64,000 nucleotides of DNA from a virus (IMGVR_UViG_3300001528_000208:40806-104805); one strand, 5' to 3'. Counted from the stretch's first letter, positions 23,033-55,878 are shown. Translations and numbers: made by a program. Notes: generated by a model from the letters alone, not told the origin.

Positions 23033-23708
23033 ATGACAGTGGATGAATACATGATTCTTCACAAATACATCTGTGGGAAATTCGGCGGATGTCGTGACTG
23101 CCCAATTAACGATTGGGTTCCGTGTGACATGGAGACGCCAGAAAAGGCAATGGTAAAATGTGCTCTAATCGCCTATGAAAAATATGGTAACGCCGGTATG
23201 CAGACGATGGGTGTTCTGTCGCGTTATTTGAAGGCGGTGATTGTTTGAATGATAAAGATTATGAACTGTTAAACAGTTTTATATGTTCGCGCTATGGTTC
23301 GTGCGATAATTGTCCGCTGAACAAATACGACGATTGTGATTTTGGGCCAACAAAACAGGAAATCGTGGAAATCGCAAGGGGATTATACGATTTGCCAAAC
23401 AATGATGAAATGTTCGGACTTACACACAAGGACGAAGAAAAGGTGCGAAAAATCCTTGAAAATTATCGAAAGGTGGCGATTGTGTGACAGCAGAAGATAT
23501 GAATGTTATACAAGCCATACTTTGCGATAGGGTTGATGAATGTAAGAATTGCCCACTTTTCAGAAGAAAAGGGAACGCTTGCTGGGGAAATTTTTCAGCA
23601 GAAGACGAGGATGATTTCCTTCGCATCGTCCCACTTGTTATCAAACTGACAAACAGCCCTGCCATTAAGAAGTATCTTGCCGGATTTCTGAAGGTAGGTG
23701 TGGTCTGA
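23033..23708 (+). CDS. Three tandem Cys-rich small proteins (23033-23248, 23245-23487, 23484-23708) ending AVIV, VAIV, VGVV
   Basis: Shared [IL]C-x5-C-x2-CP[LI]-x4-7-C pattern; overlapping stop/start codons. Confidence 0.7.
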
Positions 23709-23890
23709 TGTGCAAGTTCTGCGATTATGATTCCAACGACTGCACGATTTTTCAAGATGCTGTCGGCGACTGGTATCTTGACCATGAAACAGGCGAATGG
23801 GATATCTATGAAGACGAATTTGTCCACGATAGAATCTATATAAATTATTGTCCGTTCTGTGGGGAAAGGCTGAAGAAATGTGAAAAGTAG
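23708..23890 (+). CDS. Small Zn-ribbon protein
   Basis: MCKFC...INYCPFCGERL. Confidence 0.7.
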   Translation: MCKFCDYDSNDCTIFQDAVGDWYLDHETGEWDIYEDEFVHDRIYINYCPFCGERLKKCEK

Positions 23891-24761
23891 CAACTATACT
23901 GATATGACGGGATGGATAATGAAAGAACATGGCGTTCCTAATAGTAAACTAACGGTTTTAAGACGTGCAGAAAATAAAGGGCATCATATAATGTGGGAAT
24001 GTGTATGTGAATGTGGCAATGATATTGTTGCTGATGGCTATAACATAAAACACAACAAACTTTCTTGCGGTTGCGATAATCCATACTCATTTATTGATAT
24101 GACTGGCTGGGTGATGAAAGAACATGGTGTGCCAGAAAGCAAGCTTACCGTAATACGTTTGCATGAAAAGGGCAATTATAAACCAACAACATGGGAATGT
24201 TTATGTGAATGCGGTAATATTTGTATTAAGCCCGGTAATCGTATAAGATTTGGGAATGCTATTTCTTGCGGATGCATTAGTGCTGGAAATAAAAAACGGA
24301 AACATAAGACTGGAATTGTTGGGGAAGACTACAAAAAATTTTTAACAAGACACCTTAGAATAGTATGGTATGGCATGAAACAAAGATGTTACGATAAAGA
24401 ACATGGTAGTTATAAAAATTATGGAGGACGTGGAATATCGGTATGCAAGAACTGGTTAAACGATTCTCAAAGTTTTATAGATTGGGCTTTTAATACAGGT
24501 TATGCGCCCGGCTTAACCTTAGATAGAATAGATTGCAATGGAAACTACGACCCAGATAATTGCAGGTGGGCTACGGCAAAAGAACAGGGCAACAATAGAA
24601 GAACAAATTATTGTATAGAAATTGATGGCGTTATACACACTCTTCAAGAATGGTCTGACATTTCAGGGGTAAATAGAAGTACAATAAAGACCAGAATGGG
24701 TCAAGGAATGTCTGCAAAAGATGCAATTTTTAATCCCATAAATAATGGAGGTATATCATGA
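23880..24761 (+). CDS. HNH homing endonuclease with duplicated N-terminal Zn-binding domain
   Basis: Two DMTGW.MKEHGVP.SKLTV...WEC.CECGN repeats; W.GMKQRC, YGGRGI, LDRIDCNGNYDPDNCRWAT..EQ.NN. Confidence 0.85.
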   Translation: MKSSNYTDMTGWIMKEHGVPNSKLTVLRRAENKGHHIMWECVCECGNDIVADGYNIKHNKLSCGCDNPYSFIDMTGWVMKEHGVPESKLTVIRLHEKGNYKPTTWECLCECGNICIKPGNRIRFGNAISCGCISAGNKKRKHKTGIVGEDYKKFLTRHLRIVWYGMKQRCYDKEHGSYKNYGGRGISVCKNWLNDSQSFIDWAFNTGYAPGLTLDRIDCNGNYDPDNCRWATAKEQGNNRRTNYCIEIDGVIHTLQEWSDISGVNRSTIKTRMGQGMSAKDAIFNPINNGGIS

Positions 24762-25219
24762 AGTATATTTGTTCAAAAAGAATGAATATAAAAGCTATTT
24801 CTGGAGAAGTTAATTTTCGGGTTGGGACGGTGTTTAACTGTTCCAACGGGTTGATTACGCATAACGGGAAGGCTATTTGTTATGACCACAGTCAAAACGC
24901 ATACGATTATCTATCTTGTGATGATGATGGATTTGGAATTCGCCGCGGACAGCTTGTGCGTGATATTATGGGGCGCTTAAAAAAACGTGACGACAAGTAT
25001 CAGGAAAAATGGGATAGAATTTGGATGGATAAATCGCTTCAAAAATATAAAAGAATTGAATTTGCAGATTATTGGCTTTGGAATTATGATTTTTTTAATG
25101 CACCGATCGGCGAACTTGAATATATTCTTGCACGCGTGAAGGGCGAAGTAGAACCGCGAGACGGCGTTACAGAAGATTTTATGGACGAAGAAACGGTGGT
25201 TGAAGATGGCGACGACTGA
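24758..25219 (+). CDS. Conserved hypothetical phage protein
   Basis: SQNAYDY...DDDG..RG...DYWLWN.DFFNA. Confidence 0.6.
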   Translation: MKYICSKRMNIKAISGEVNFRVGTVFNCSNGLITHNGKAICYDHSQNAYDYLSCDDDGFGIRRGQLVRDIMGRLKKRDDKYQEKWDRIWMDKSLQKYKRIEFADYWLWNYDFFNAPIGELEYILARVKGEVEPRDGVTEDFMDEETVVEDGDD

Positions 25220-25609
25220 TTTCTATACAACTTTAGCGGATTTTGCGTGGATTACACCCAAAGATGTCATTACAACTTGGACTTTGCCAACGTGTGAAAT
25301 CTATAGCGAAACAGACTGGTGGCGGTCTGCTATGAAGGTATGGTGTAGGTCTGTAAAGCCAAGAACCGCAAAGGTGGTGTAGCTATGTTCAAGCTTGGAC
25401 AAATGGTCTGGTGTAAAGATAAGACAAATTGTGGCGGTGGTTATACAAGAACGACATATCATACGCCATGCGTTGTGTGCGATATACGGAAACAGAAAGA
25501 CGGCAAAATCACCGTTGCGCCATTTGAAAACAGCGAATATTTTGAATATTGTTATACGGTAGATGCAGACTTGTTTGAACCGATTCCGTCAGGGGCGAAG
25601 GTGGTGTGA
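25206..25609 (+). CDS. Two small AKVV-tagged proteins (25206-25382; 25385-25609, SH3/KOW-like)
   Basis: Both end AKVV; second begins MFKLGQMVWC. Confidence 0.65.
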
Positions 25610-25614
25610 TATGA

Positions 25615-28623: not shown

Positions 28624-28671
28624 CAAATGTTAAGGCGCATGATATAATACCATTAAAGGTGGTGAAGTGTC

Positions 28672-29712
28672 ATGCGTCTTGATAATGTTGGTGGCGCAGA
28701 TGTTTGTAGTTTCATTTGTGGCGGTTCAGCGTGTAATCGAAATTGTTGCATGAATCAAGTTTTGGGTCACTGTTATTCTATAGCGCCTGCTTGGAATGAA
28801 TTTCCAGAAAGGCGTGCGGAACTTTTGCGCGTCATGAAGTGGCGTATTGACCATGGCGAACGCACGCTGGCGCAAGCAAATGAAATTGGTGTTTATTTTG
28901 GTGCAAAGGTGGTGTAACTGTGACTTACGGAGAAATCAATATAGGCGACATTTTAATTGCCGACAGCGAAGACAGAACGTTCCGATATAAGGTTACGCAC
29001 AAGAACGACCGGGCGCGCATGGTTACAGTACAAACCATCGAAGAATACGACCGAAATCTGCAACGCCACGTCCCATATATCGGCGGTGCGTATTCTGTAT
29101 TTGCGGAAGACTTCTGTGGGAAGATTCAAAAGAAGGCGGTGGTATTATGACGATAGACGATTACAGATTGGAAGATATTCTATTTTCTACAGAAAATTCA
29201 AACTATGCCTTCATGGTTATTGCTATCGACTACGAACACAATCGTGTTAGATTATGTCCAAGCTATCGCCGAAATGGTAATAACATCGCCGACGCAAATG
29301 ACGGCATGCCATATTGGCGCGATGCGACCGCAAGTAATTTATACCTATTTAAGCGCGTAAGAAAGGTGGCGAAAATCGTATGAATTATTTGGATAAATAT
29401 AAAATAACAAACAAAAATTCAAAATTCTATGGTCGCTACGCTTGGATGATTGATTTGCCTGACGAAAATAACCGCGCTCGCTTTATAGTCGATAGCAACG
29501 TCAAGCTTCGCATGAAAATGTCGTCCGTTCAGTTTGTTTCACCGCGCTTTTCGGACGGTTATCGGTTTCGTGATATGGCGCTTGGTGTAGAATATGTTAT
29601 CACGCGAATCAACTGGTCGCATGACAGATATCGGGCAAAATATAAGGGCGCGCTTTGGGAAGTGGCATTTTATCCGTGGAACGTACCAGAACAAAGGGCG
29701 AAGGTGGTATAA
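28672..29712 (+). CDS. Four small tagged proteins (28672-28917, 28920-29150, 29147-29383, 29380-29712)
   Basis: End AKVV, AVVL, AKIV, AKVV; operon from promoter 28620. Confidence 0.65.
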
Positions 29713-29714
29713 CT

Positions 29715-31348: not shown

Positions 31349-31350
31349 TT

Positions 31351-31554: not shown

Positions 31555-31754
31555 TCCCGCCTGCATCTATTTTCCCACAACCGAAACCGTAGTTTCAGAA
31601 GAAATCGTTGACGGTGTGAAGCATCGCAAGGTGATTCGCCGCTGTGCATTTGATTCCTATGTTATCAGAACATGGGATAATTGCCACAGACCCGAAGGCG
31701 CACTTCTGAAATGACTTGACAGAAGCCTGTTTTTGTGCTATACTATCAGTATAA

Positions 31755-33003
31755 CATGAAATCAAAGATATCCGCTATGCTTTAGCATAGTCGGCAAAAG
31801 AAAGAGAACTATATCGGAAAGGAAGTGATTGTAGATATGTTGATTGCCTACAAATATAGAATGTATCCAAATGAAGAACAGAAAACTTATTTTTCAAAAT
31901 GCTTCGGTTGCGTCAGATTTATCTACAATCGTATGCTTGCTGATAAAATCGAGTTTTACAATAAGACAAAACAAAACCTGAAAAATACGCCAGCCCAATA
32001 TAAAGACGAATTTCCATGGCTTCGAGAAGTCGATGCGCAAGCGTTGTCAAATGCTCAGATGAATTTACGGACAGCGTACAACAACTTCTTCAAGCGACCA
32101 GAAGTTGGGTTCCCAAAATTCAAAAGTAAGAAAACGCGATATGATTCTTATACTACAAATCAAGCCAATATCCGCGTGACAGAACGACACATTAACCTTC
32201 CGAAAATTGGACTTGTCAGGATTAAGAAACACAGGAATTTTTTTGGAACAATCAAACACGCTACCATTACAAGAACGCCATCGGGAAAATATTATGTTTC
32301 GGTTCTTGTTGAACAAGAAGATATTCCAAAGAAAATTCCATGTGATTCTGAACTTGGAATAGATTTGGGAATCAAGGGGTTCGCAACCACTTCTGATGGC
32401 AAAGTGATTGAAAATCCGAAATACTTGAAAAAATCAGAAAAGAAACTGCGGAAGTTGCAGAAAGACTTGTCTCGTTGTAAAAAAGGAAGTAAAAATCGAG
32501 ATAAATGTAGAATTAAAGTTGCACGTTGTCACGAGAAAATAACGAATCAACGCAAGGACTTTCTAAACAAACTTTCAAAAAGACTGATTGATGAAAACCA
32601 AGTCATATGTCTGGAAACATTGAAAGTTAAGAATATGATGAAAAATCATAAACTCGCTAAGTCTATTGCTGATGTATCATGGTCAGAATTTGTACGACAA
32701 CTGGAATACAAAGCAAACTGGTACGGAAGAGAAATTGTGAAAATTGATTCGTGGTATCCAAGTTCGCAGTTGTGTAGTAAATGCGGATACAAAAATACAG
32801 AAATAAAGGATTTGTCTGTTAGAGAATGGGTGTGTCCGCAATGTGGAACTGTTCACGATAGAGACATTAACGCTGCAATAAATATTCTTAATGAAGGATT
32901 GAGAATAAGAACCGTAGGAACTACGGGGATAGCCTAAGTAAACTTGTCTCGTTAGAGATATTGATTAGGAAGCACCGGTGCTTTATCATCGTGTGTAGTT
33001 CAC
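31755..33003 (+). mobile_element. IS200/IS605-family (IS1341-like) TnpB-only element
   Basis: Left-end hairpin ccgctatgc-ttta-gcatagtcgg; right end ...GTAGTTCAC; removing it restores a hairpin in the flanks. Confidence 0.7.
31837..32937 (+). CDS. tnpB: TnpB RNA-guided endonuclease
   Basis: [29 protein letters not shown]...[15 protein letters not shown]; D-E-D triad intact. Confidence 0.93.
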
Positions 33004-34390: not shown

Positions 34391-36355
34391 ATGAACGACT
34401 TTGACAAGGCTCTTGATTTTATTCGGAATCACTACTTTTCAATCCTTGTGTTCAACAAGGGTACAAAAGAACTATATGAACGTATCTGTAAAAGGTATGA
34501 TGCCGTGCGTGTTGAATACGACGATGCTGTCGGGCTTAGGTTTGGTCTCTATAGGTACGCTGGATATTCAATTTATCCTGCACGATGCTATGAAATTTCC
34601 GACGGCAGAGGATATTACGACGGTCAGTGGTATTCCGTTCTGTCGTTCGATAGGCGTCCGACGGCAAAGGTGGTGTAACTATGTTCAAAGTCGGTCAAGT
34701 TGTTTGGTGTAAGAAAAGGTATCAATACAGCGTTACAAATTATCACGTCAAATGCAGGGTGGTTAAAACGTCTGCAACCTGCGCCATTCGCGTTCGTGTT
34801 ATGGAAGGTCATTATTCTGGCAACGAATATCCCGTAGACGGAAGCTATTTTGAATTGGTGCAAAAGAAGGCGGTGGTTGTATGAAATTCTCGGATTTTCG
34901 CAAGGGCGACCTTGTGTTTTCTGATGGGAACAAGGGGCGCGTCTGGACTGTTGTAGAAACATCCGCCGTCGGCGTAAGGCTGCTTTGCACACATTTCCGC
35001 GAAGGTGATAAGGTCGGTGAAAAGCTGGGTAAATTCAGCACCTGCGAACCGACTTGGTTCACAGGAAATCCAAAGATTCTTCATGTCGTTTCGCGTTCTG
35101 CAAGGGTAATATAATATGGCAAGACTGAAAGCTGAAAAACTGATTCCCGCCTGTCCTATCTGTGGCAACAATATGCAGGTGGAATATAGCGCCAACATGA
35201 ACCAGATTGCTGGAACTGCCGATTGGCATTTGGATTTTGCACCACGCATTAAAATGTGCGCAGACTGTAACAAATCGCTGGTGGAAACTGTGAACAAGTG
35301 GTTCAAAAAGCAGGATAAAACCGGATTTTATCGTAAGAAGTGGGTGAAAACATGAACTTTAACATTGGCGATGTCGTCTGGTGCATCGACCCAACCAATA
35401 ACGGCGGACGTTATCCAATCACCCACTATCATCGTCCTTGCGAAGTTGTGCAAGTCAGAAAAGAAGAAATTCGCGTCAAAGTTCTTGGCGAATGTGATTA
35501 CGGCGTCAAGAATCTTGAATTTTGGGTTGACAGAAAGCTGTTTCAGCGTGTAGAATCGAAGGCGAAGGTGATTTGATGAATCTTCGTGAAGAAATCGGCG
35601 GCGTCAGGCTGAACTGGCAAAAACTTGACGGCATCAATGATATAAAAACGATTCCGTTTATAAATTTTTCCGAAGTCGTTGTGCTTGTCGAATCAGACAA
35701 TGATGCCGTGTCTTTTCTTAGAAAAATCGACAAAATATACTGGCATGGCAACTACCTGTGGTTTAATCAAGATGGTGAATATGCTGGATGGGATAGTGAC
35801 CTTGACTGGTATCCATCCGAAGATGAAAAATGGGAAACGATTGGAACGTTCTATATTCCCGAAAGAAAGGCGGCGAAAGTTTTATGAAATACTACTGTAA
35901 CGTTTATCCGCGCGATGGTCGCGACCTTACCTATGTTCACGAAATGGTTAATGGCAAGGTCGTAACCGACCTTGAAAACATCAACGTTGGCGAACGTGGT
36001 TATATCCGTCCTGCTAATGGTGGCGGCGTTCACACGTCCACAATTCAGGAAGTGGATTATCTGTGCGATGGCGATATTCGCATTGTAACGCGCAACAGTA
36101 TCTATGAACTCACAAGGATGGGTGACGACGATGCGCCTTGAGTGGCTTGATAGGAAGGGCGACCGCACGTTCGTAGGTAATGCTGATAACGTAGACCAAG
36201 CGTTGGACATGATTGGCGACTGGTGTAAAGAACACGATTTTCAGTCGTTCTATGTGCGGTGGTGCGAATTTTCAGACCATTATTGGTTCGATTACGGATC
36301 GCACACCTGCTTCTTTGAACTTGCAAAAGGTCTTGACAAAGCGCAAGTTGTGTGA
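34391..36355 (+). CDS. Operon of eight small proteins; six tagged (34391, 34681, 34881, 35352, 35573, 36131) and two untagged (35116, 35884)
   Basis: Tagged ends AKVV, AVVV, ARVI, AKVI, AKVL, AQVV; promoter 34337. Confidence 0.65.
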
Positions 36356-36375
36356 TATTATAATGTCATAGCACA

Positions 36376-36667: not shown

Positions 36668-37603
36668 ATGGCTAAGAAATTTTTTGCATCATTCGAATCA
36701 GTTCCAAACGATTTCGCCGCAGCTAAACTGCGCCTTGGCGAATTTGGTGTGATTCGCGCCAATGGTAATCGCTACAACGTCCTGCCCGTTAAGGACAAGA
36801 CGCCGCTGGATGTTGGCGACAGCGTGTTTACCCGCGCTGGTGGCAATTATGGCATCTACGATATTATTGCGATTGACGACCGCTGGTTTTCTGTTGGCAA
36901 AGGCGACAAGAAAAAGGGTCGCGTTGTGCGTGCTGATATCTATGGGAAGGTGGTCTAATGAGAAACTATCCAGCTAAGGTTGGCGACCTGCTAAAATATG
37001 GTTCGACCATATATCGCGTTGTTGGCGTGAATGAATATGGGCGTGTCGATGTGCGACGTGCGTATGTGTTTTCAGGCAAAAATCCTGTTAAAAGCGATGG
37101 TGAACTTATACCAGATATTACTGTAACTGCTTTTGACCGTCGGTTTTTCATTTCTGCGAAGGTGATATAATGACAAGGGGATATAAACCTAAAGTCGGAC
37201 ATTTCTTGTGGTATTGTGGTCACATATACCGCATCTTAAAGGTACATGACGACAACAACCATGTTGACGTTCTGCATCATAGTTATAAGACTGTCGCTGG
37301 AAATTTCGTAAAGGTAAGCGATGATGTTCCACTGACATATATAACAGCAGATTCTTTTGAAAAGCGATTTATTCCGTCAGCAAGGGTGGTTTGACTATGA
37401 AATTCAGGGTTGGTCAGCTTGTTTGGTGCAATACCACCGGACAGTATGTTCAGACGGATTATCACGTCAAGTGTATTGTAACGAACGTTTTAAGAAACGA
37501 CTACATTACCGTGCGTATTACCGAAGGAAGATACGCTGGAAACGAATGGGATGTCGAAACCATTTTCTTTGAACTGGTGCAAAACCGCGCAAAAATTATC
37601 TAA
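36668..37603 (+). CDS. Four small SH3/KOW-like tagged proteins (36668, 36958, 37170, 37397)
   Basis: End GKVV, AKVI, ARVV, AKII; VG[DHQ] motif near strand starts. Confidence 0.65.
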
Positions 37604-40747: not shown

Positions 40748-40823
40748 GGCCCCGTGGTCAAGTGGTCTAAGACTCCGCCCTTTCAAGGCGGCAACGGCAG
40801 TCCGAATCTGCTCGGGGCTACCA
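40748..40823 (+). tRNA. tRNA-Glu(UUC)
   Basis: Cloverleaf, ccgcc-CTTTCAA-ggcgg anticodon arm, encoded CCA; T-loop TCCGAAT. Confidence 0.9.
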
Positions 40824-41412: not shown

Positions 41413-41488
41413 GGCGCACTCGTCTAAAGTTAGGATGCCGCCTTCTCACGGCGGAGATAGAAGTTGCAATTCCTTCTGTGCGTCACCA
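41413..41488 (+). tRNA. tRNA-Glu(CUC), atypical T-loop
   Basis: ggcgcac/gtgcgtc acceptor, ccgcc-TTCTCAC-ggcgg, CCA end; 9-nt T-loop TTGCAATTC. Confidence 0.75.
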
Positions 41489-43246: not shown

Positions 43247-44329
43247 ATGGCAATGGCTGTTTCTTCGGAAATTAAAAAGGAAATGCTGGCGGCGGTCGAT
43301 AAGAAAGCGTTCATGGAAGCCGTCAGAATCACTGCTGAAATTGACGTGAAAACAATTTCGCGCAAGCAGGTGAATGAATATCTGCGTCAATGGGTTGATG
43401 CAAAGGCGTGGATGTTTGAACTGTTCGGGCATAAGACGCGCTTGATTCGAGAAGTCGAAATTCCCGCAGACAACGAAACGATGCGGTCTAATATTGAAGA
43501 ACTTTGCCGCAAGTATCCGCAGTATGCGGCGACCATTAGCGAACTGCGAACGGAAGATTTCTGCGAAGGCGTTATTAACAGAACAACAAGCAAGACGCTG
43601 ACGTGGCTGTTTCCCCGCGTCTATCGCAAGGGCGCAAAGACGTCTAAGGTTCTGTCAAAGATTCTAAACGACTACGACTTCGATGTGGAACTGTCAAAGG
43701 TTTTGCAGAACAATATGGTCAAGGGTCGCGCAATCGTCAGTATTGACCCTGTGGATATGGTCATGCTGTCCACTAACACGCACAAGTGGGGCAGTTGTAT
43801 GTCCATTCTGTATGACCGCAACGACCGCACACAGAATCGTGGTGGCTTTAATAAGGTCGGCGGATTTTCTTTGATGCGCGATGATTGTACTACCGTCGCA
43901 TATCTTGACCACAATAAGACAGCCGTGTTTGCGAACGATTTCGGTTCATTTGAATGGACGGATATGATTTTCCGTCAGTTGCTGACCATTGACAAGAACG
44001 ACCTGACCAACGTGGTCTATGGTCATTATAACGGTACGCCCAGCGATGCAATTCGTGACGTTTGGGGCGAAATGCTTCGCGAAGTTATGGGTGGCGAAAA
44101 TTGGACGATGAATGATACGGGCTATTATGGATTCCATAAGCAATGTGCAGGGTTCTATTATGACACCATGAATACACATTGGTACGGTTCGTCTAAGCCT
44201 AAAGACCGTACAATCGGTGTAAAACAGCTTTTCTGTGTCTGCTGTGGAAAGAAATTTGAACGTCTACATCAATATAAGAACTGGTTATCCTGTTCGGATG
44301 GTTGCAAGACCAAGGAGGACAAAAAATGA
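43247..44329 (+). CDS. Hypothetical phage protein (paralog of 41593)
   Basis: QW.DAK...FGH, KG...VSIDPVD...STN.H.W.SC, FRQLL, CVCCG. Confidence 0.75.
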   Translation: MAMAVSSEIKKEMLAAVDKKAFMEAVRITAEIDVKTISRKQVNEYLRQWVDAKAWMFELFGHKTRLIREVEIPADNETMRSNIEELCRKYPQYAATISELRTEDFCEGVINRTTSKTLTWLFPRVYRKGAKTSKVLSKILNDYDFDVELSKVLQNNMVKGRAIVSIDPVDMVMLSTNTHKWGSCMSILYDRNDRTQNRGGFNKVGGFSLMRDDCTTVAYLDHNKTAVFANDFGSFEWTDMIFRQLLTIDKNDLTNVVYGHYNGTPSDAIRDVWGEMLREVMGGENWTMNDTGYYGFHKQCAGFYYDTMNTHWYGSSKPKDRTIGVKQLFCVCCGKKFERLHQYKNWLSCSDGCKTKEDKK

Positions 44330-44973
44330 AAAATGTGATTCTTTTTTCTACGCATTGCGCCGACAAGCGCCTGAACAATCGCGTGAACGACTGGCTGAAT
44401 AAGCACGGCAAGAATCGTCGCATTGCTGTTATCCCGTCCTATTGGCAGGCGACCACCCGCGAGTATCCGCCCTACTTCGCCGCCAAGATGGGCTTTGAAG
44501 AATACATCATTTGCCCTGTTGGCGAAAACTTCGACAAGAAGTGCTGGGAATATGCGTTGGAAAGCGACGCAATCCTTTTAGAAGGAGGGAACACGTTTGT
44601 CGAATGGACTATGATTCATTTCCGTGGTCTTGATAATGACTTGCGCAAGTTCGCCAATCGCGGTATCCTGATGGGCATTTCTGCCGGTTCGCACATCATC
44701 AGCCCAACCATCGACCTTGCATCTGTTGCTGACGACAACTATCTTTGTCTTGCTGGCGACGAACTGAACAGCCTTTGTCTTACCGATTTTCTTGTAAAGC
44801 CGCACGCTGGCGGGTGGATGGAACACAAGGCGCTGTTCCGCAACTATGCGACCAAGTACAACAAGCCGGTTTTTATGATTGATGAAGGTCAGGCGGTGTG
44901 GGTTTGCGACCACGGCGTCCGCGAATATGGCGGGCATATCACAAAATTCTTACCATACAAGGACGGTGCGTGA
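44326..44973 (+). CDS. Peptidase S51 (dipeptidase E / class I GATase-like)
   Basis: DAILLEGGNT, GISAGS nucleophile elbow, VKPH, IDEG. Confidence 0.8.
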   Translation: MKNVILFSTHCADKRLNNRVNDWLNKHGKNRRIAVIPSYWQATTREYPPYFAAKMGFEEYIICPVGENFDKKCWEYALESDAILLEGGNTFVEWTMIHFRGLDNDLRKFANRGILMGISAGSHIISPTIDLASVADDNYLCLAGDELNSLCLTDFLVKPHAGGWMEHKALFRNYATKYNKPVFMIDEGQAVWVCDHGVREYGGHITKFLPYKDGA

Positions 44974-47142
44974 TGGAAATTGCTTGTTCCTGTGACATTG
45001 TGCGCAACAATAATCCAAAATCTAACCGCTTCGGTCAGTGTGGGATTGTCTTGACAACATCGACCGCGTGTGCTTATGTCAATTATCAAGATGGCAAAAC
45101 CGTTTATTGCGCCGTCAAAAATTTTGTGCTTGTTAAGCACTTTGAACTTCGTGAAAAGATAGGCAACGAAGCTGTTTTTGCCCGTACATATTGGGGGAGT
45201 CTTGAATTTATTGATGAATACGGTCGCAGAAGACGCCTTAGCCGTGATGAAATGTGGAAGTTGGCGCAGAAATATATCCGTCGCGCCGCCGTGGTGGTTT
45301 GACAAATCATCAACTTTCTGCTATTATAATATAGGTGATGAAAATGAACAGAATTAAAATCGGCGACAAGGTTCTAATCAAAGGCAATTCACGAATCCAC
45401 CACAGCCTGCTTGTTCCATCTATTGCAGAAGTTATCGGTATGGATGCTGTCAGTTTCAATGTTTTTGGGCATGACATCAATGGCAGGACATATAGCCAGT
45501 GGATTTCACCCATTGATATTGAACTGGTAAGAAAGGCGGTGATTGTATGACGCGCGAAGAAAAGAATCAGCACGTTGAGTTTATGAATGACGCGCTTTGC
45601 GACCTTTGTTCCACCTATCAGGATTGCACTTGTGACGGCTGTGAATTTGCGCGCTACATTTCCGTCAACGGTCGTGCCGGCACAATCATTTCTTCCACCG
45701 ACATGGGCGACTGGATTGATATGGCGGTGTATATCGAAGGCATTATTTGCCAAGTCATGATGGCTGACGGGAAGCCTGTCGCTATCTGTGATGACGTCGG
45801 TCTTGTCCGCCTTGGTGATGCCAAAGCAAGCGACGTGGCTGATTTCGCAAGCAATTATGCTGAATTTGACGAAAACGAATGGAACGATTCTTTGCCGTGC
45901 TGGTGGAATGATTCGTTTGGATGTTGGGAAGAGGTAATCGAAAATGCCGGTAAATGATTACAATATAGACCGTCTAACCGGAAGAATCTGCGAAGAATTT
46001 ATGTCTTGCGAAGATTGTCCGCTTTATCCCCACAAATATCCAACACAAGAACGTATCGAACAGGGCGACCCGACTTTTTGGTGCGATGATGCGTCTTGGA
46101 AAGATGCTGAAATTTCTGCCACGCTTGCATTTCAAGATTTGCTGAAAAATCATCCCGAACTTCGCAAAAAATTTACCGCAGAAGATATCCGCGAAATTGG
46201 CGTTATGAAAGGGACAATCTTATGAAATACGATGGCGAATATCTGCGCGGTTTCATTTGCCGTAATTATATGTGCGACCTTTGCCCACTGACCAATAGCG
46301 ACGATTGTTATTATCGCTGTCGCAAAAACACGCCCGCGACAAGCGAACTTTTGAAAGCTGTTGGAACCTACATGAACACAAAGACACCCGCACAGCGTAA
46401 ACAATGCAGTCGTGTTAACGCCATTATGGCGAAATATATAAAGGCGGTGGTGCTGTGATGGAAAAGATTTTATATACCTGCCCATTAGGTTTTTTAATCG
46501 CATTATTTATCCCTGTCGCTGTCCTTTTTGTAGGCGCGGTTCGCGAAGCCTATGTTTCCACAAAGAAAGCAATACAAAAGAATCGCCTTAAAAAGTTTAT
46601 TAAAGACAATGAACAAAAAGCTGTCCCCTGCCATTGTGGTGGTCATGCGTATATTGAACACCGCTTCGGTGAATTTTACCACATCGGATGCACGGGTTGT
46701 GTTACCGGCTTCACGGACGAAGATATTCCAAAACTTGTCAAGATGTGGAACGACGTCCAAAGCCTTAAAGCTGGCGATTATGTTGACGCAGGTGTTTTTA
46801 AGGGGCGCGTTCAATCAATATCTTGCGGCGAAGCCTATGTTTATGCAGATGTCTATAACACCTATGTCGAAGTTCCGCTGTCCTATTTGAAGAAAATCAG
46901 ACCGTCGTCTGCAAAGGTGGTGTAGTATGAAAACTGGAACCGCGCGTCAAGGTATGCGCGTCAGAATCATCGGCAATCACAATAACCACGGATTTAAAAT
47001 TGGCAAAGTGGTAACGCTTCTGGAAAAGGCGTGGTACCCGCCTGACGACCGTGGTTATTCGTTCTATGTAAGATATAGAAAGGGTGTTTTACACAGCGTT
47101 CGTGAAATTGACATAGTGCCGGTCAACGCCACCGTGGTATAG
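44973..47142 (+). CDS. Seven small proteins; six tagged (44973, 45338, 45944, 46222, 46458, 46927) and 45547 untagged
   Basis: Tagged ends AVVV, AVIV, GTIL, AVVL, AKVV, ATVV. Confidence 0.65.
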
Positions 47143-47201
47143 CTTGACAAGTCAACTTTTTGATGGTACAATATAAGCATGATAAGGAAAGGGGTACTAC
47201 C

Positions 47202-47537
47202 ATGAAAAATTTTCGCACAAGAAATTCCATCATCCTGTTCTTCGGTATCGCGCTAATTGTTGTTGTAGCTATTGCGTCCACTTCATGCGTGAAAAATGAC
47301 CCGCAACCGTCAGTTGACAACCTGTATCCGCACGTTGCCGTGGTTGTCGATACCGACGAAGTTGACGACAGTGTTTATTTATGCGACTTTAACGGCGAAC
47401 TTTGGAAGTTCTACGGTGTCGAGGACTGGATGGTTGGCGATATCGCCGCCATGATTATGGACGACCGTGGAACGCCTGAAATTGCTGGCGACAGAATTGT
47501 TTCAGTTCGCTATTGTGGCAGTATTGCCGTGGGGTGA
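47202..47537 (+). CDS. Membrane-anchored protein or lipoprotein
   Basis: Hydrophobic N-terminus followed by STSC; promoter 47144. Confidence 0.6.
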   Translation: MKNFRTRNSIILFFGIALIVVVAIASTSCVKNDPQPSVDNLYPHVAVVVDTDEVDDSVYLCDFNGELWKFYGVEDWMVGDIAAMIMDDRGTPEIAGDRIVSVRYCGSIAVG

Positions 47538-47541
47538 AATT

Positions 47542-47793
47542 ATGAATAAAGAAGATATTGCATATCACTTCAAACGCGCCGGTTGCCGTGTGCCCGGATT
47601 TGGAAATGGATGCCACACTTGTCCAATTCGCAAGAAACTTGGGCGGTGTTGTTCGTATGACAAACACGACGAAACCATTAACGTCGGCAAACTTCTATAT
47701 CACACGGATAAGAAATACCGCGAAAGCATAAACACCGAAATCAAAGAACATCCAGATTTTCGACCGTATGTATGCGGTTGTCGAATCGTCTAA
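47542..47793 (+). CDS. Cys-rich small tagged protein
   Basis: C..CPI motif; ends CRIV. Confidence 0.6.
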   Translation: MNKEDIAYHFKRAGCRVPGFGNGCHTCPIRKKLGRCCSYDKHDETINVGKLLYHTDKKYRESINTEIKEHPDFRPYVCGCRIV

Positions 47794-47812
47794 AAAAGAA
47801 AGGAAGAAAACT

Positions 47813-48430
47813 ATGAATCTGAAAGAATCTTTCCGCTATGCGTCCTACCTTGAAACCCTTGCATCCAACGCTTCTGGAAATCTGCGTCTTTCCACACACG
47901 CCCTGACCACAACCAAAATCCATCGCAAGTCTGCTGTTGACCCCGAAGCCAAGGACATTACTGAAACCGTTGACAACGGCGATTTCGTTGCGAATAACGA
48001 CCTTATCCGCTTCTTGCAGTTCGTTATCGCCGAACGCGACAAGCTGGGCAAGGCAATCACCGCCGCGAAGAATAACTGCGGCTTTGACATTGACAATGCG
48101 GTCGCCGTAAACAAGATGCGTCAGCGCGTTGCCGATGATATCAAGCGTATGCTGTCCTATAAGGCAAGCAAGACCAAGAATATCGCCAATGGCTATCGTT
48201 TCAACGTGGCTGGCGACCAGACTTCCTATCGCTACGAAGTGGAAATCGTCGACGAAGAAAACTTTGACCGCAAGGCGTCTAAGGCTGTCATGACCGCCAT
48301 GCTGGAAGAATCTGATGCGACTTCTGCTGAAATTGACCGTGTTCTTGTCACGACCAACGTTGACTTCATGCCGCATTTTAGTGTGAATGACAGTTTCGAC
48401 GATGCTGTTGAATCGTACTTAAAAATGTAA
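47813..48430 (+). CDS. DIP1984-like helical protein
   Basis: MNLKESFRY N-terminus, helical hairpin pattern, ends SAEIDRVLVTTNV; AAGGA RBS; strong codon bias. Confidence 0.55.
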   Translation: MNLKESFRYASYLETLASNASGNLRLSTHALTTTKIHRKSAVDPEAKDITETVDNGDFVANNDLIRFLQFVIAERDKLGKAITAAKNNCGFDIDNAVAVNKMRQRVADDIKRMLSYKASKTKNIANGYRFNVAGDQTSYRYEVEIVDEENFDRKASKAVMTAMLEESDATSAEIDRVLVTTNVDFMPHFSVNDSFDDAVESYLKM

Positions 48431-48431
48431 A

Positions 48432-48883
48432 GCGGGTTTTGCCCGCTTGCTTCTGGTGGTAAATTAGCGCGAAACTACACGAAACGCCTGCAAACGCGCA
48501 GTTTGTAGCACCATAGCGATATGGTCGCTTGTAGAAGTTTGATATGCCACTTAAAATTTTTAAGTGGCGTGGATAATATATACTAAAACAATCAAAGCCT
48601 TTCTGGCTTGCTGAAGGTCGCTTCGCATAACGACATTCACCTAACACAATTACCTGATTCCATTATCCATAAACACGAAACACCACCTGTCGGACGGAAC
48701 ATTTATCGCGTAATCACGCAAAGCACCGACCGTCTTGGCATCCTCTGGGCTAATTACCCAGCTCCAATGCTTAATGGATGAAATTGGTAAGTGCAAATTA
48801 CCATCTATCAATGCCGATTTATTCGGCACTATTTTCGTGTTCTTTCTGCGGCTTCTTGCCGCCAGAAGCAAACGGGTAAACGC
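48432..48883 (+). ncRNA. Candidate structured ncRNA C (~450 nt)
   Basis: Ends pair over ~45 nt (48438-48484 with 48832-48880) with G-U wobbles on + strand; internal hairpins; no credible ORF. Confidence 0.65.
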
Positions 48884-48903
48884 CAACTTTAGTGAGGTGT
48901 AAT

Positions 48904-50719
48904 ATGAACATAAATGCAATCAAAGGTGTTATCAGAGAAAATCCGCGCGTCATACTATATTTCGGTTCTGATTGCGAATCGTTCATTGCTGTCACTAAGG
49001 CAACAGGCGGATTTATCCCAGCCCACATAAAAGGTTACACTGAACTTTGCCTATTGTATGCTAATGGCAAATATGATGGTTTCAACCGTGATGGTAGCAT
49101 CGAGTTTTTCAAGATGGATTTTTCTACCAAGACTGCATATTATAAACGTTGGGTCGGACTTAATCGCGACCAAGAAGATGAATGGTTGCTGGTGGACTTG
49201 TCTCACGAAAGAAGGGCGCGAATTGTATGAATTGGATTCGAATAACAGCCAAAAGTCAAAAAGACATTCGCGTTGGTGATTTCGTCAGGACGATATATTT
49301 CAGTAACACCCTATATAAAGTTCTTTCAATCGAATATGTCGATGATGAAATGTATCTTATGGTTGGCGTTTCTGATAAACATGGCGCAGTGGACGAAAGA
49401 TGTATTTACGCCCGTCAACACATAAAATATTTTGGCACCTATTCACCACAGAACAGAAAAGCGCAGGTGATTTGATGGATTTTCATGTTGGTCAAAAAGT
49501 TATCATAGACAGCGACGATACCGAGTATCTTGAAGACCGTGCTGTTGATAATGGCATGGTCGGTGTAGTCATTCACATTTATGAAGGCAGACGCTTCCCA
49601 ATCAAGATAAAGGTTGATAGCCACATCGCGCCTGTCGAATGTTGCTTCAAGCCGGACGAACTGAAACCCGCGCCCGACTGTGCAAAAATTATTTAGACGC
49701 CGAAAGGCGTCTTTTCTTTTGCAAAAATATTGACAAATTGTGAACAAAATGTTACAATATTATTACAATAAGAAAGGCGGTGTGCAAATGAAACCAAAAA
49801 TCTTTCGCTGGTTCGTCTACAAATACGAAAACGGCAAGTTCAGCGTCAGCACAATGCACCAGTCACAGAACGCGGCGAATATTTGCGCAGGCGACGCGAT
49901 TGATGATATTTGCGAAGCGCATGGCTATAAGCGCAGGTTCAACGACACGGGTGAAGTTCAGGCATATATCGCGTCCGATGGCGATAAAATCGTCACAGCG
50001 CGACTGGTAAAGCGGGTGTTCTAATGAATTATCTTTATAGGGTTAATCAGCGCGTTCGGATTGTAGACAATACTGCAATCCATCACTACGCCCCACTTGG
50101 GCAGGTTGCAAAAATAAAAAGTCTTACATCGTGGGGCAACAGGGAAGCATATATTGTCACCTGTAAAACAACAAACGGAAAACCTGCACAGGTAATTATC
50201 GAGCACGACCTGCGTCCAGCGGGTGCGGAGGTGGTGTAACATGAATATTCCCGACAGTAATGCGCTTGATGCAATCACGGATTGCCTTTGCAGGGTATAT
50301 CGCGCAGAAAAAGGCGGCGTCGGTTGTCTTGATTGTCCGTTGCATAAAATAAAAACCAGACATGGTGGCACCATTTGTTCGCTTTATGTTGGTAATGACG
50401 AAGAAAGACTGGAACTTTTGCAAGCCTGCATTAAGCACGGCAACGCAACTATATTCAAAGATTTGTCGCCAGAATATAAACAATTTGTGACAAGGACGGT
50501 GACAGTAGTATGAATGAATTTCATGTTGGACAAAAGGTGAAAATCGTTGGGAACACACACGAAATTCATTACGCAATTATCCCGCAGATTGGCGAAATCG
50601 TCCGTGCGGGATACCGCGATTGCCGCGTAAAATGTAAAACAATAAATAGTGGTAATAACACGACCACGCAAACAATTTACACTTGCGACTTGCGCCCAAT
50701 CGGTGCTGAAATAATTTAA
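48904..50719 (+). CDS. Small proteins; six tagged (48904, 49227, 49475, 50024, 50241, 50510) and 49788 untagged
   Basis: Tagged ends ARIV, AQVI, AKII, AEVV, VTVV, AEII. Confidence 0.65.
49730..49760 (+). promoter_or_regulatory. Promoter with embedded palindromic operator, identical 31-bp copy at 51674-51704
   Basis: ttgacaaattgtgaacaaaatgttacaatat at both sites. Confidence 0.75.
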
Positions 50720-50734
50720 TGGAGGACTAAAAAA

Positions 50735-51479: not shown

Positions 51480-51945
51480 AGGCGGGATAAACCCGCCTTC
51501 TTTTTTGTTGTTTACAAAATAGTCACAATTTCCAAATCGCGCATAAATGCGTTCTAAGCGCGTTTAAGATAGGGTGCATACTTTTACCACCGCGCGCCTA
51601 AAAGCGCGTACAGCGCGTTCTACGGGCATTTATAGCGGTTTTATCGCGTCCGGTCGGGTAAATCGCGCAAGGCTTGACAAATTGTGAACAAAATGTTACA
51701 ATATGGGTACAACAGGGAAGATAGCATCTTCAATTTATCTGTTGTTGGAGTACAATATGAACACGATTGATTATGAATATAGCCAGTATCTTCTGCGCTA
51801 CGGTAAATTCATCACTGATGATTTTGTAGGTAACGCGCGAATCAGAATTATCCGCGCACCATTCAGCGGACTGCGGTATCATAAGATGGTGAACGGCGAA
51901 GTGGTGAAACTGGTCAATTTAACTTCGGCAGAATAAGGTGAAACT

Positions 51946-53489
51946 ATGGATAGAAATATTGTTCTGGAAATTGAGCAGGCATTCTGCGACCATTATAATA
52001 CAAACTGCGATAGGTGTCCAATTAGCAAATACAAAATAGCGGAAGATTTGGCGATGTGTCACTATGCCTTTAACAAGGAATCTACTGAAGAACAAGTGAA
52101 TATATTCGTCAACCTTGCGCGTTGGCATTGGAATCACAAGTGGACGCAGGAACTTAGCAATAAGGCAAGAAGAATTATTGGAATAAGGGCGAAGGTGGTT
52201 TGAATGAAGGTTAAGAAGGGCGACCGTGTGAAAATTGTTGCCAACCACAGCGGACACCAATTCAAGATTGGAACCGTTGTTGAAATTCGCAGCGGGGACA
52301 AAGGCGGTCTTTCTGCTTGGGAACCAAACCATAAACACATGAACCACGGACACGGCGGTTTCTGGTGGATTCGCGAAAATGATTTTATTCCGACAAAGGT
52401 GACGATACTATGACGACCGAACAGATTTTACAAAAGATTAAGCGTAGAATACGAACCTTAATTTATTTTGGCGACAATATCGCACAATTTCAGGAAGTTG
52501 CCGAAGCGATTTATCCTGACTATGCCGACAGGCTTATGGAACAAATCAGCGAATATAATGATGGAACAGAATTTCAACTTGTGCTTCGCACTTTTCATGG
52601 TAGATTCGACGGCTGGAACGTTGAAGATAGCTTGGAATGTTATCGCATACATCTTGAACGGGACACATGCGCCCATAGATATGGTGCGTTTATTAACGCG
52701 ACGAAGGTAAAACGGGCGGTGATACTGTGACAACACAACAAATTATATCTGCAACCAAGAAATGTTATTCGACTGTGATTTACTTCGGCAAGGATATGGA
52801 ACAGTTTCGCGAAATTCTGCCACGACTTAAATACGTTCGCGGCTATACATACGATGGCATCCTAAGAAACTTAGACGCCTACATTGCTGATGGTGGCAAA
52901 ATCGACCTTGTTATTCGCACGGTTGGCGGGTACTTTGATGGCTGGAATTGTTCCAAAAGCGTCGGATTCTACAATATTAACTTTGACACAGGAACCTGTC
53001 GTCTTACAAACACCACGGTGATTGACGCCAGCAGAAGGACGGTGAAAATTCTATGACTAAACGCGAAGCAGCAACCAGCATTATATGCTACTGGAATAAT
53101 TGTCGTAGGGATTGTCCGCTGTGGAACCACGCGCGCAACAGTTGTTCTTGCGAGTTTTATTCTGTCGCGGAATTGCTTAGGATTGCACGCAAGGAATATG
53201 CGCGGAAATCAAGCGATGTAAGGTGTGGCAAAGAATATCGGCAGATGGTGGAAAATGAGTGGAAGAAGATTGGCGGTGCAATAATTCTATGATGTTGAAA
53301 GTCGGGGAGACCGTCAAAATCGACGTGGATATGGCAGAACGCTTCAACGTTTCGTTCATTGCTACAGTAAAACAGGTGGATGAAAACGATAAAGATTTCA
53401 CATATCTATTACGTTTGTCTGACGGAAGAGATATCTGGTTTATGAATGAAGATGTGATACCGGCAAAAGCATTATCAAAAGTCGTCTAA
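51946..53489 (+). CDS. Six consecutive tagged small proteins (51946, 52204, 52410, 52727, 53053, 53289)
   Basis: End AKVV, VTIL, AVIL, VKIL, AIIL, SKVV. Confidence 0.65.
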
Positions 53490-53569
53490 CGCTTGACAAA
53501 ACCATTGTAATTTGCTATTATATCATTAGCGGCGGGGAAGTCCCCAATCTATGCCGCGCGGAGTACATT

Positions 53570-54744
53570 ATGAAAATTGTAACTTTTGGCGAAATCAAGA
53601 ACGGCAATTACATTTTCGATGTTGTCGAATTTGATGAAGCCGACGCAAAAATCACCAACGGATTCAGACCAACAGAAGATGGCACCGAACCATATCCCAC
53701 GCTTCGCATCACAAAATATAGGGTGGTCGGTCAGATTTCTGCCGAAGAAGTGCCTGTGGACAATCGCATGGAATGTGGCGTAACGCTGGTTCGCGGCGCG
53801 ATGGAAAGCGTCACCTTTACTTGTTTTAGAATGGCGGTGTAAGGATGTATTATATTAAGTTTGACTGTTCTGGCAATGCCACAATCTATGAATTTGAAAA
53901 GAAAATGCACGCCATTTGTGGAACATTTGTTCTTGTGAATCGCCTTGTTTCATCAGAGACTGGGTGCGCATCTGAACTTCTGCCGAAACGCGGAATTGTG
54001 CCCGTATCCGACAAAACAGAAACCGTCAACTTCGCCAGCGTCGAATATAACATCGAAGGCTGGTGTGGACTTTACGGTGAAGGATTTGATGGTTCTACGT
54101 CTATCGCGAATTACAAGCTGAATGATATGACACCCGCCAAAAAGACGGATAAGATGTTTACAGTCGTACACGAGCCCATTGGTGTCTATCGCTTCACTCC
54201 TCCAATCGCGTATTTTGCGGAAAGATTAAGGTGACATTATGAGTTATGCAGAACACATGGCGGCGCTGTATCGCCAAGGCACAATTATCAACCAGAAGCA
54301 TCGCATCAACGAAAACGGCGAAGCTGTTACGATGTTCACAATCCGCATGAACCACGTCTACGACAATCTGACGTCGGGCTACTGTGACGGTCTTTACCAT
54401 GTAACAACGGTCAACGGTAGGTTTGCTGGCGCCAAGCGCGTCTATGTGTAAAGGAGTATAATATGATTCAATTTATTATCGCCGTTCTGGCGCTTATCCT
54501 TCTTTACTGCATCGTTTTATGGCTTGTCGGCATCGTTGAAAACGCCGACGAAAAAACAGTCATGTGCCTGCGGACGTTCTACCGTCTGCTGAAAAACAAC
54601 AAGGTGTTTGACATTGATATGTTGTCTGGTATTGGCTACTATAATCAAGGTGGCTACCGCGATTGGGTCATGCCGCGCTGGTCTTGGTATCCGATTTTCG
54701 TCGCATTCCTTATTGGTAGCGCTTTTCACAAGGATGTAATTTGA
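53570..54744 (+). CDS. Four untagged small hypothetical proteins (53570, 53845, 54239, 54463)
   Basis: Operon from promoter 53493. Confidence 0.6.
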
Positions 54745-54860
54745 TATGCAGGCGCGGTGGAATAATTTTTCACCGCGCTTGACAATTTTATATAGGCGTG
54801 CTATACTATAATTACAGCAGGAAAGGGAAGCCTTTAATTTATCTGCTGTCGGGGTACATC

Positions 54861-55878
54861 ATGGATATTATTGCCGCTTACAATCGCGCGCCAGCACAGA
54901 CGGTGTGCGATGTCTACAAGAAACCATCTGTTGCAAAGAAAACCATCGAGCGCATGATTCTGCAAGAAATGAAAGGCTGCAATGGCTGGGGTTACAAGGT
55001 GATTTATCATACCTGTCAGCATTTTACCGCTGGATATTTATACGCCAATGGTTATACTGGCGAAATCGTTCTGCGCGTTCATAAACCGCATTACACGACT
55101 GACATGGAATGGCATCGTACCGATGCAACGGTGGTTTAACTATGAAAGATAGAATTTTTAATAAGGCGCTGTGGGCGTGTTGCAAAATGTCCGGCGGTGT
55201 CACCTGCAACGGCTGTCCATTGTTAAAACTGAAAATTGGCGAAAACGGTATGCCGAATTTTCTATGTTTATCGCATCACGACCCGACGCATAAGGCGGCA
55301 GAAGCGGCGATTGAACAGGTCGTAAAAGAAAATCCAAAGGCGTTTCCCGAAGAAGTTGTGCGGGCAATTATCAGACAGGCGAAGGTGGTGTGACATGAAA
55401 TATAGCAGAAGAACGATATTGTTTGACTGCGCGTGTTTTCAACGTGACTGTAGCACCTGCAAGTTAGCCGATGTCGGCTGTGGTGACGCACCAACAGAAT
55501 TGCTGGCAGAAGAAGCGCGTAAGCACTATCTGCAAGTGAAGAATGGCGGCGACTGGGAATATTATGACGAAATAATGTCGCTTAACTTCGGGAAAGATTA
55601 TGCCAAAGAATTTATGCTGGTAAAAGCAAGGGTGGTATAGCATGAACAAACGCCTGATATTTGAAGCGGCGTGTCTTAGACGACAATGCGGGGATTGCCC
55701 ACTTGGTGTATACGGCTGTAGTTTGGCGCCAGTGGATATGCTGTTAGAAGAAGCGCGTAAGCATTATGCGAACATGAAAAATGGCACAGGGTTTGCTGGC
55801 TACGACAGAGTGCTGACAAAAGAACATGGCGAAGGCTACGCCAAAGAATTTATGACAACAAAGGCGAAGGTGATATGA
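54861..55878 (+). CDS. Four tagged small proteins (54861, 55142, 55395, 55642); last three Cys-rich
   Basis: End ATVV, AKVV, ARVV, AKVI; 55395 and 55642 are close paralogs (EEARKHY...YAKEFM). Confidence 0.65.

Follow-up and report, generated by a model that had tools for sequence, protein, structure and literature searches.

A C-Terminal Tail Shared by Small Phage Proteins

Forty-two small proteins encoded in a 64,000-nucleotide stretch of viral DNA (hereafter the window, the last 64 kb of the single 104,805-bp virus record IMGVR_UViG_3300001528_000208) end in one common C-terminal tail, with the consensus [KR]-x-A-[KVTR]-[VI]-[VIL]-COOH. This tail is a real, portable peptide maintained by selection. 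It was scored as the pattern [AGSCV]-x-[VI]-[VIL] followed by the stop codon, and the proteins that carry it are called tagged. The initial annotation, made from the sequence alone, had listed 42 stops with their tails; every one was correct, and all matched the pattern. The real tagged genes were all found within positions 23033–55878 of the window, and the genome's first 63 kb had none.

In the region of small proteins (window 23–56 kb), 42 of the 68 small proteins were tagged, compared to a background of 1.09% of internal 4-mers matching the pattern in the same proteins (binomial p ~1e-64). Considering all open reading frames (ORFs) of at least 50 aa in the whole genome, 43 of the 313 plus-strand ORFs had the pattern, compared to 3 of the 310 minus-strand ones. 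Outside the region 0 of 53 genes were tagged, 24 of these being coupled, meaning that a downstream start lies at most 10 nt from the stop (gene set taken from a curated table). Position −4 was Ala in 33 of the 42 tails. The residues most often found at position −3 were K (18), V (7), T (5) and R (5), position −2 was V (28) or I (14), and position −1 was V (26), L (8) or I (8). An enrichment in K/R was visible at positions −5 (19/42) and −6 (15/42).

The initial annotation had described the tag as phage-wide, which was overstated: it is limited to small-gene arrays that look early, and the structural and replication genes are without it. The proposal that recognisable enzymes and membrane-only proteins lack it held for the proteins larger than 160 aa inside the region (0 of 14 tagged) but not entirely for membrane proteins: a tagged protein of 155 aa (46458–46925) has a hydrophobic N-terminal segment, so that membrane anchoring is compatible with the tag.

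The tagged ORFs are listed here with their tails (SD, Shine-Dalgarno site; the relative is G001, a complete genome of 107,954 bp from IMG/VR; families and models are described below).

23033–23248 (+), 71 aa, 4-Cys helical; AVIV, TTGA overlap with the next start
23245–23487 (+), 80 aa, 4-Cys helical (AlphaFold2 model); VAIV
23484–23708 (+), 74 aa, 4-Cys; VGVV
25206–25382 (+), 58 aa; AKVV, GCA AAG GTG GTG TAG CT ATG
25385–25609 (+), 74 aa, SH3-like family; AKVV
28672–28917 (+), 81 aa, Cys-rich; AKVV
28920–29150 (+), 76 aa; AVVL
29147–29383 (+), 78 aa; AKIV, SD AAGGTGGCG one codon upstream of the tail
29380–29712 (+), 110 aa; AKVV
34391–34678 (+), 95 aa; AKVV
34681–34884 (+), 67 aa, SH3-like barrel (AlphaFold2, pLDDT 86); AVVV, unstructured
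34881–35114 (+), 77 aa; ARVI
35352–35576 (+), 74 aa, SH3-like family; AKVI
35576–35887 (+), 103 aa; AKVL, non-SD codons GCG AAA GTT TTA
36131–36355 (+), 74 aa, phrog_1174/2773; AQVV, uncoupled, Staphylococcus phage homologue without the tail
36668–36958 (+), 96 aa; GKVV
36958–37170 (+), 70 aa; AKVI
37170–37394 (+), 74 aa; ARVV
37397–37603 (+), 68 aa, SH3-like family; AKII, uncoupled, GCA AAA ATT ATC
44973–45302 (+), 109 aa; AVVV, uncoupled, stop within a −35 box overlap (GTT TGA CA)
45344–45550 (+), 68 aa, SH3-like superfamily; AVIV
45944–46225 (+), 93 aa, 4-Cys; GTIL, differing from the relative by three synonymous changes
46222–46458 (+), 78 aa, 4-Cys; AVVL
46458–46925 (+), 155 aa, hydrophobic N-terminal segment; AKVV
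46927–47142 (+), 71 aa, SH3-like superfamily; ATVV, uncoupled, differing from the relative by four synonymous changes
47542–47793 (+), 83 aa, 4-Cys; CRIV, uncoupled
48904–49230 (+), 108 aa, third family; ARIV, in the relative AKVV with a changed junction
49227–49475 (+), 82 aa; AQVI
49475–49696 (+), 73 aa, SH3-like superfamily; AKII, then a terminator
50024–50239 (+), 71 aa, SH3-like superfamily; AEVV
50241–50513 (+), 90 aa, 4-Cys; VTVV
50510–50719 (+), 69 aa, SH3-like superfamily; AEII, uncoupled
51946–52203 (+), 85 aa, 4-Cys; AKVV
52204–52413 (+), 69 aa, SH3-like superfamily; VTIL, AKVV with the other junction type in the relative
52410–52730 (+), 106 aa, third family; AVIL
52727–53056 (+), 109 aa, third family; VKIL
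53053–53292 (+), 79 aa, 4-Cys; AIIL, whose counterpart in the relative is AKVL and uncoupled
53289–53489 (+), 66 aa; SKVV, uncoupled, TCA AAA GTC GTC
54861–55139 (+), 92 aa; ATVV
55142–55393 (+), 83 aa, 4-Cys; AKVV
55395–55640 (+), 81 aa, 4-Cys; ARVV
55642–55878 (+), 78 aa, 4-Cys; AKVI

Tail Codons and the Shine-Dalgarno Site of the Next Gene

What sets this case apart is that the tail codons systematically serve a second time, as an SD site. For 34 of the 42 tagged genes, the following start was at most 10 nt away and an SD-like 9-mer was located within the last 3–5 codons. Two types of junction covered most tails. In the overlap type (ATGA, GTGA or TTGA), AAG GCG GTG ATT GTA TGA encodes K-A-V-I-V, and in the spaced type (stop, 1–2 nt, ATG), GCA AAG GTG GTG TAx encodes A-K-V-V. 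Both place the 9-mer AAGG(T/C)GGTG 5 nt before the next start, and this 9-mer pairs with the Firmicute anti-SD apart from one central mismatch.

The codon choice follows from this double use; the double use itself had been pointed out in the initial annotation, and AAGGTGGTG or a one-off variant encodes nine tails. The Val codon at −2 was GTG in 21 of 28 tails, compared to 23% of Val codons genome-wide. When the tails of the window and of four related loci were pooled, coupled tails (n = 64) showed AAG for 24 of 29 Lys codons and GTG for 38 of 46 Val codons at −2, whereas uncoupled tails (n = 17) showed AAA for 6 of 6 and GTG for 3 of 9, respectively, with an unchanged peptide pattern. The uncoupled tails use AAA and GTY/ATY codons.

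Such an arrangement could mean that the tail is a by-product of coupling. A strong in-frame SD of the Firmicute type, AAGG(T/C)GGTG(AT), would be translated as K-V-V or K-A-V-I and spread by duplication, the uncoupled copies would not yet have decayed, and the peptide would be functionless. The proximity of the next start, the 9-mer 5 nt ahead of it, the GTG bias at −2 and the existence of the same SD variant in non-coding leaders are all expected under this explanation, as is the fact that many tagged genes are paralogues. However, among the coupled genes elsewhere and the large coupled genes of the region, 0 of 30 were tagged (Fisher 1e-10), and the untagged coupled genes have their SD in the same place and frame with ends such as KEVLA, KEVNP and KEGVR. 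Neither the Ala at −4 nor the hydrophobic residue (V/I/L) at −1 in the overlap junctions is dictated by the SD. A by-product would be expected only next to a downstream start, and 8 of the 18 uncoupled small genes of the region were tagged (p ~8e-12), compared to 34 of the 50 coupled ones. In G002 (99 kb) and G003 (94 kb), two remote phages of Firmicute type whose polymerase is related (47–49% identical), the pattern was present at background counts only.

Coupling is therefore neither necessary nor sufficient for the tail, and the SD overlap accounts for the codon choice only. The by-product explanation is unlikely and already largely contradicted. Two earlier claims were thereby upheld, namely that the tag is kept with non-SD codons (17 uncoupled tails across five genomes) and that selection acts on the peptide, the enrichment persisting where no coupled start follows. 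SD sites within the 3′ end of the gene before are familiar from translational coupling, which the tails resemble in that 34 of 42 double as the next SD; ordinary coupling, however, fixes no peptide, while here the ends of coupled genes elsewhere vary and the peptide persists in uncoupled genes.

The SD variant AAAGGTGGTG differs from the canonical site by a central T in place of A. It was seen in non-coding leaders straight after consensus promoters (window 20034–20062, 28640–28671 and 3134–3145). The possibility that the T of AAGGTGGTG is imposed by the peptide was ruled out by the identical SD in non-coding leaders; the variant is not merely a consequence of the peptide, since it is present in true leaders. 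The structural genes have mostly GGAGG-type SD sites.

Conservation of the Tail in Related Phages

G001 and several ENA/Logan contigs of 92–112 kb are syntenic with the window phage and have the same tails. No sequencing run, RNA or other, was listed as containing window 45300–49700. The comparison with G001 was made on 32 end-aligned orthologue pairs. The pattern was retained in all 32, with a mean body identity of 68.7% that fell to 41–56% in some pairs. Purifying selection acts on the bodies (dN/dS 0.18), and the tagged ORFs are therefore real genes. Of the 128 tail codons, 74 were identical, 28 synonymous and 26 non-synonymous, the latter nearly all within the pattern. For instance, the two genomes encode ATVV by GCCACCGTGGTA and GCGACGGTAGTT, and GTIL by GGGACAATCTTA and GGAACTATATTA. 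The tail was also kept when the junction switched: KVTIL at 52413 (ATGA overlap) corresponds to AKVV-TAA-C-ATG in G001, and AIIL at 53292 (coupled) corresponds to AKVL (GCG AAA GTC CTA) without a downstream partner. The orthologues thus keep the peptide while the nucleotides change, as the selection hypothesis of the initial annotation had implied. In seven uncoupled pairs, positions −4, −2 and −1 were identical in 21 of 21 cases at a synonymous divergence (pS) of 0.66, near saturation; with the uncoupled non-SD tails of the five genomes, this also argues against a by-product that merely has not decayed.

The same data bear on a role of the nucleotides themselves, in which the junction (tail codons, stop and start) would provide microhomology for swaps of small-gene cassettes between related phages. 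Adjacent genes range from 41% to 99% identical to the relative, and these sharp steps between neighbours point to mosaic exchange at gene borders; in addition, junctions of the type GCAAAGGTGGTGTAxCTATG recur. Nonetheless, recombination at the junction predicts that nucleotides are conserved, whereas it is the peptide that is conserved, across synonymous changes and junction types, and the uncoupled tails have no nucleotide motif in common. We consider this explanation very improbable.

Among 2.9 million IMG/VR contigs, the typical junction was present in more than one copy in G001 only. A single hit was found in 24 others, as expected because SD junctions arise occasionally. In one SH3-like family, 117 of 120 metagenomic homologues were tagged, the main tails being AVVL (32), GKII (27), AKVV (13) and ARVV (11). 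A more diverged relative, L029, frequently has Gly at −4 in place of Ala, and in two of its ORFs (1408–1614 and 4268–4483) the orthologous tails are one residue off the pattern (KGVIK and GRVM); a lineage-level shift of the tail is possible in L029, judging from these ends. Phylogenetic profiling against G002 and G003 was of little use, as too few genes were in common. The carriers belong to one clade of roughly 105-kb phages, whose host is probably among the gut Clostridia.

The Tail on Unrelated Folds

The initial annotation had assigned the tagged bodies to at least three unrelated families, and many sequence-unrelated groups were indeed found. With BLAST, the tagged proteins of the window phage and G001 fell into about 25 clusters. 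Profile-profile comparison of the window proteins, run after cutting the last 8 residues, gave groups of 12 (4-Cys), 10 (SH3-like) and 3 members (the third family, of 106–109 aa), plus about 15 unlinked groups. Paralogy fails to explain the tail. Searches of Pfam and PHROGs with the 42 tagged proteins returned almost nothing, the 36131–36355 protein alone matching phrog_1174/2773.

The 4-Cys proteins (70–93 aa) have the motif C-x5-7-C-x2-C-P-[LI]-x7-20-C and are encoded at 23033–23708, 45944–46458, 47542–47793, 50241–50513, 51946–52203, 53053–53292 and 55142–55878. C14, C20, C23, C31 and P24 are invariant, and the family is probably a metal-binding module. AlphaFold2 models were built from shallow alignments (11 and 21 rows) for one protein of each of the two main groups. 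The 4-Cys protein was predicted as a four-helix fold (pLDDT 77) with residues 78–80 at pLDDT <50. The SH3-like protein was predicted as a five-stranded barrel (pLDDT 85.6) in which the last strand stops at residue 59 of 67, residues 64–67 (AVVV) having pLDDT <50. Two clearly distinct folds thus carry the tail, and its last 3–4 residues are unstructured in both models. With Foldseek, the barrel reached TM scores of 0.6–0.73 to the Spt5/NusG KOW, Fyn/Lyn SH3 and Tudor domains with E-values of only ~1e-2; the body of about ten tagged proteins belongs to the SH3/KOW/Tudor small barrels at the fold level only, with no Pfam match. Searches with the 4-Cys model against PDB and BFVD (Foldseek) and in a wide VIA-align search returned nothing convincing (best Z 4.7).

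A structural role, in which the tail would be a terminal beta-strand that completes each fold or zips subunits into homo- or hetero-oligomers, appears quite improbable. Strands are favoured by beta-branched residues, many of the tagged proteins are small beta-barrels, and their first strand, F-K-V-G-Q-V-V, could pair with the tail. The homodimer prediction for the SH3-like protein scored 0.02 without controls and has no bearing on binding either way. In both models, though, the tail lies beyond the last secondary-structure element at low pLDDT, an all-helical fold bears the same tail, and distant homologues match the fold without it. In a profile search with the 4-Cys family over 1.84 billion representatives, 29 of 40 matches had the tail, and the most distant homologues were without it, including multi-repeat proteins of 268–595 aa with 3–5 tandem repeats.

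The 36131–36355 protein provides a second example. A protein word-index search with it returned two near relatives only, and tblastn against GenBank phages found Romulus_058 of a Staphylococcus phage, 42% identical and ending in EGGTNG. The alignment ceases at F-F-K-L-L-K, where the window protein goes on with GLDKAQVV. On these comparisons the tail is an add-on to folds, and a portable one.

A Possible Degron-Type Signal

The tail looks like a common handle, most likely a signal of degron type, a reading that we hold with about even confidence. Strong host-type promoters head the arrays that encode these roughly 40 small proteins, which are unrelated in fold and on which the tail is a flexible end. 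We propose that a single partner would recognise the tail as a free C-terminus, with a host AAA+ unfoldase/protease of the ClpX type as the foremost candidate, favoured because the basic-basic-Ala-hydrophobic end resembles the C-terminal ClpX signal of MuA. With such a reader, the early proteins would be short-lived in synchrony, or the tail would deliver to the machine or compete for it. In coupled genes, the codons GCN AAG GTG GTG or AAG GCG GTG ATT GTA are chosen to serve also as SD.

Shared terminal signals with one reader are of a known kind, examples being degrons, clamp-binding peptides and secretion signals. Phage early proteins such as lambda O, N and CII, as well as MuA, are protease substrates. 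Parsell, Silber and Sauer reportedly found in 1990 that proteins with non-polar C-termini are generally destabilised in bacteria. The tail resembles ssrA and the non-polar C-terminal degrons (ClpX C-motif 1, Tsp/Ctp and FtsH) as a short portable non-polar end on unrelated proteins, but the ssrA tag is added co-translationally through tmRNA (transfer-messenger RNA), whereas the tail is encoded in the genome. Among documented signals the nearest is the MuA C-terminus, RRKKAI, which a host AAA+ unfoldase reads; it belongs to a phage protein and is a ClpX C-motif-2 degron (PMC5143411, PMC12723719). Its likeness to the tail consists of a free unstructured C-terminus, basic residues, Ala and a hydrophobic end, as seen in QKKAVVV, RRAAVVV, RKVAKIV and ERKAAKVL. 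The MuA signal is on one protein, while the tail is on about 40, in a phage whose host is probably a Firmicute. A literature search found no paper that describes one tail common to dozens of early proteins of a phage.

Several observations weigh against a degron. MuA has its Ala at −2, while here the Ala is at −4 and is followed by two or three beta-branched V/I/L residues; to our knowledge, no ClpX motif of such form is documented for Firmicutes. Mimicry of ssrA was ruled out: the candidate host-group tags, taken from the tmRNA of the five genomes with the closest TnpB relatives (mostly Lachnospiraceae, other Clostridia; the host group being deduced), end in AYAA, LAAA or YAFA and not in A-x-V-V. 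No PDZ, Clp or other recognisable tail-binder was found among the phage proteins scanned. Single tail positions were identical in 23–29 of the 32 pairs compared to 17–25 for their neighbours, a modest excess, and from these alignments the conserved feature is the residue class rather than the exact residue. The SD variant AAGGTGGTG also precedes 20063 and 28672, in true leaders that follow promoters, so that the tail could have begun as an SD by-product. Finally, the low pLDDT of the ends is weak evidence of flexibility because the alignments were shallow.

The evidence for a selected, exposed and portable tail fits equally well with a docking tag that would plug the small proteins into one phage or host scaffold acting as a non-proteolytic hub. 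The procapsid, a membrane complex or a factory for replication or transcription could be such a hub, and the outcome would be localisation and not degradation. Hub-binding C-terminal peptides (clamp-binding motifs, SSB tails) are an established principle, and the tagged 46458–46925 protein would be membrane-anchored. The beta-clamp motifs, the T4 gp45-binding tails and the SSB tip resemble the tail as short terminal peptides on unrelated proteins with one hub, but the hub peptides QL[SD]LF and DDDIPF are unrelated to it in sequence, and their carriers are replication enzymes, whereas here they are small proteins. A beta-clamp motif (QL[SD]LF or QLxLxL type) was ruled out, as the tails have no Gln or Leu/Phe pattern. 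In terms of PDZ ligand classes, P0 is always V/I/L, and most tails fall outside class I, S/T-x-hydrophobic, and class II, hydrophobic-x-hydrophobic, because of their residues at P−2, which is position −3 of the tail. No candidate hub was found, the large proteins of the region (514, 360, 191 and 205 aa) being without an informative match, and a tail of four to six residues gives little specificity for a dedicated hub. A packaging role is disfavoured, as the genes appear early rather than late. Docking is thus possible, although somewhat unlikely.

A more elaborate form of the degron reading, which we regard as doubtful, is that the diverse small binders (SH3-like, 4-Cys and others) would each grip a different host or defence protein and that the shared handle would deliver both to one host machine, for example a Clp-type protease. 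The phage genome would then encode a natural set of adaptors for targeted degradation, with a handle interlaced with the translation signals of the operon.

If one partner reads the tail, a single peptide would govern the fate of about 40% of the genes of the phage in the early arrays and offer an experimental handle on dozens of opaque small proteins. Should the tail be a degron, it would add a new, compact C-terminal signal to the few defined in Clostridia and other Firmicutes, and it would show how a single signal lets a phage time an entire class of effectors. A selected peptide that overlaps the next ribosome-binding site is also a clean natural example of dual coding.

Arrays, Neighbouring Genes and Host

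Nearly all genes of the record are on the plus strand. They include those for a DnaE-type polymerase III alpha, DnaB, an intein-bearing NrdD and two TnpB, together with numerous small ORFs. The polymerase shares 35–43% identity with its counterparts in Clostridioides, Bacillus and uncultured gut phages, and the closest cellular relatives of the mobile TnpB (73–75%) are in metagenome-assembled genomes of Lachnospiraceae and other gut Clostridia. On account of these two sets of relatives, the host is probably a gut Firmicute, perhaps of the Lachnospiraceae or other gut Clostridia. A near-identity DNA search among GenBank phages gave no match.

The tagged genes look early and transcribed by the host polymerase, as predicted from consensus scans, which also located terminators closing a few arrays. 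The promoters have an extended −10 (TTGACA, 17 nt, TGnTATTAT).

22985–54807 (+), about 15 near-consensus sigma-A-type promoters heading the small-gene arrays (consensus scans only)
22985, 28620, 31716, 34337, 36333, 38166 and 40209 (+), first hexamers of promoters (consensus scan)
43191, 45299, 47144, 49730, 51674, 53493 and 54779 (+), further first hexamers of promoters (consensus scan)

On the plus strand of the 20–55 kb segment, about 18 near-perfect TTGACA-17-TGnTATTAT promoters were seen. At 28620, 34337, 38166, 40209, 45299 and others, the −35 TTGACA overlaps the TGA of the preceding gene (xxT TGA CA), so that the gene end and the next promoter share bases.

The untagged genes among the arrays encode homing-type HNH and PD-(D/E)XK nucleases, a methyltransferase, a metallophosphatase, a SleB-type hydrolase, a PG-binding amidase-like protein, and S51 and M42/M20-like peptidases. 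The M42/M20-like peptidase is at 39235–40212 (phrog_4191, “peptidase”) and the S51 peptidase, of the PepE/cyanophycinase family (E 1e-18), is at 44326–44973; these two genes flank large paralogues of 514 and 360 aa amid the tagged arrays. When a reader was sought among the larger phage proteins, nothing tied the S51, M42/M20-like or SleB-type proteins to the tail. For the two paralogues, Pfam, PHROGs, PDB sequences and the ESM Atlas yielded nothing informative, nor had the proteins of 191 and 205 aa any informative family or atlas match.

Between 40212 and 41593, a 1.4-kb segment has few convincing ORFs and at least five consensus promoters. It contains a tRNA-Glu (40748–40823) and a second, weak tRNA-like match (41414–41484), and may be a small-RNA region.

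The TnpB genes (IS605 OrfB/Cas12f-like) are at 31837–32937 and 11460–12551. The copy at 31837 is 99.5% identical to that of G001, compared to 76–90% for the genes on either side, which suggests a recently mobile element. The NrdD gene, at 12894–15221, has an intein-like insert, and in a related locus (L031, 2978–7992) the DnaE polymerase gene is split by an intein with a LAGLIDADG gene. Near the right end of the genome, the ORF at window 60309–61376 encodes a protein similar to the GmrSD N-terminal domain (DUF262), which shares only 50% identity with the corresponding protein of the relative.

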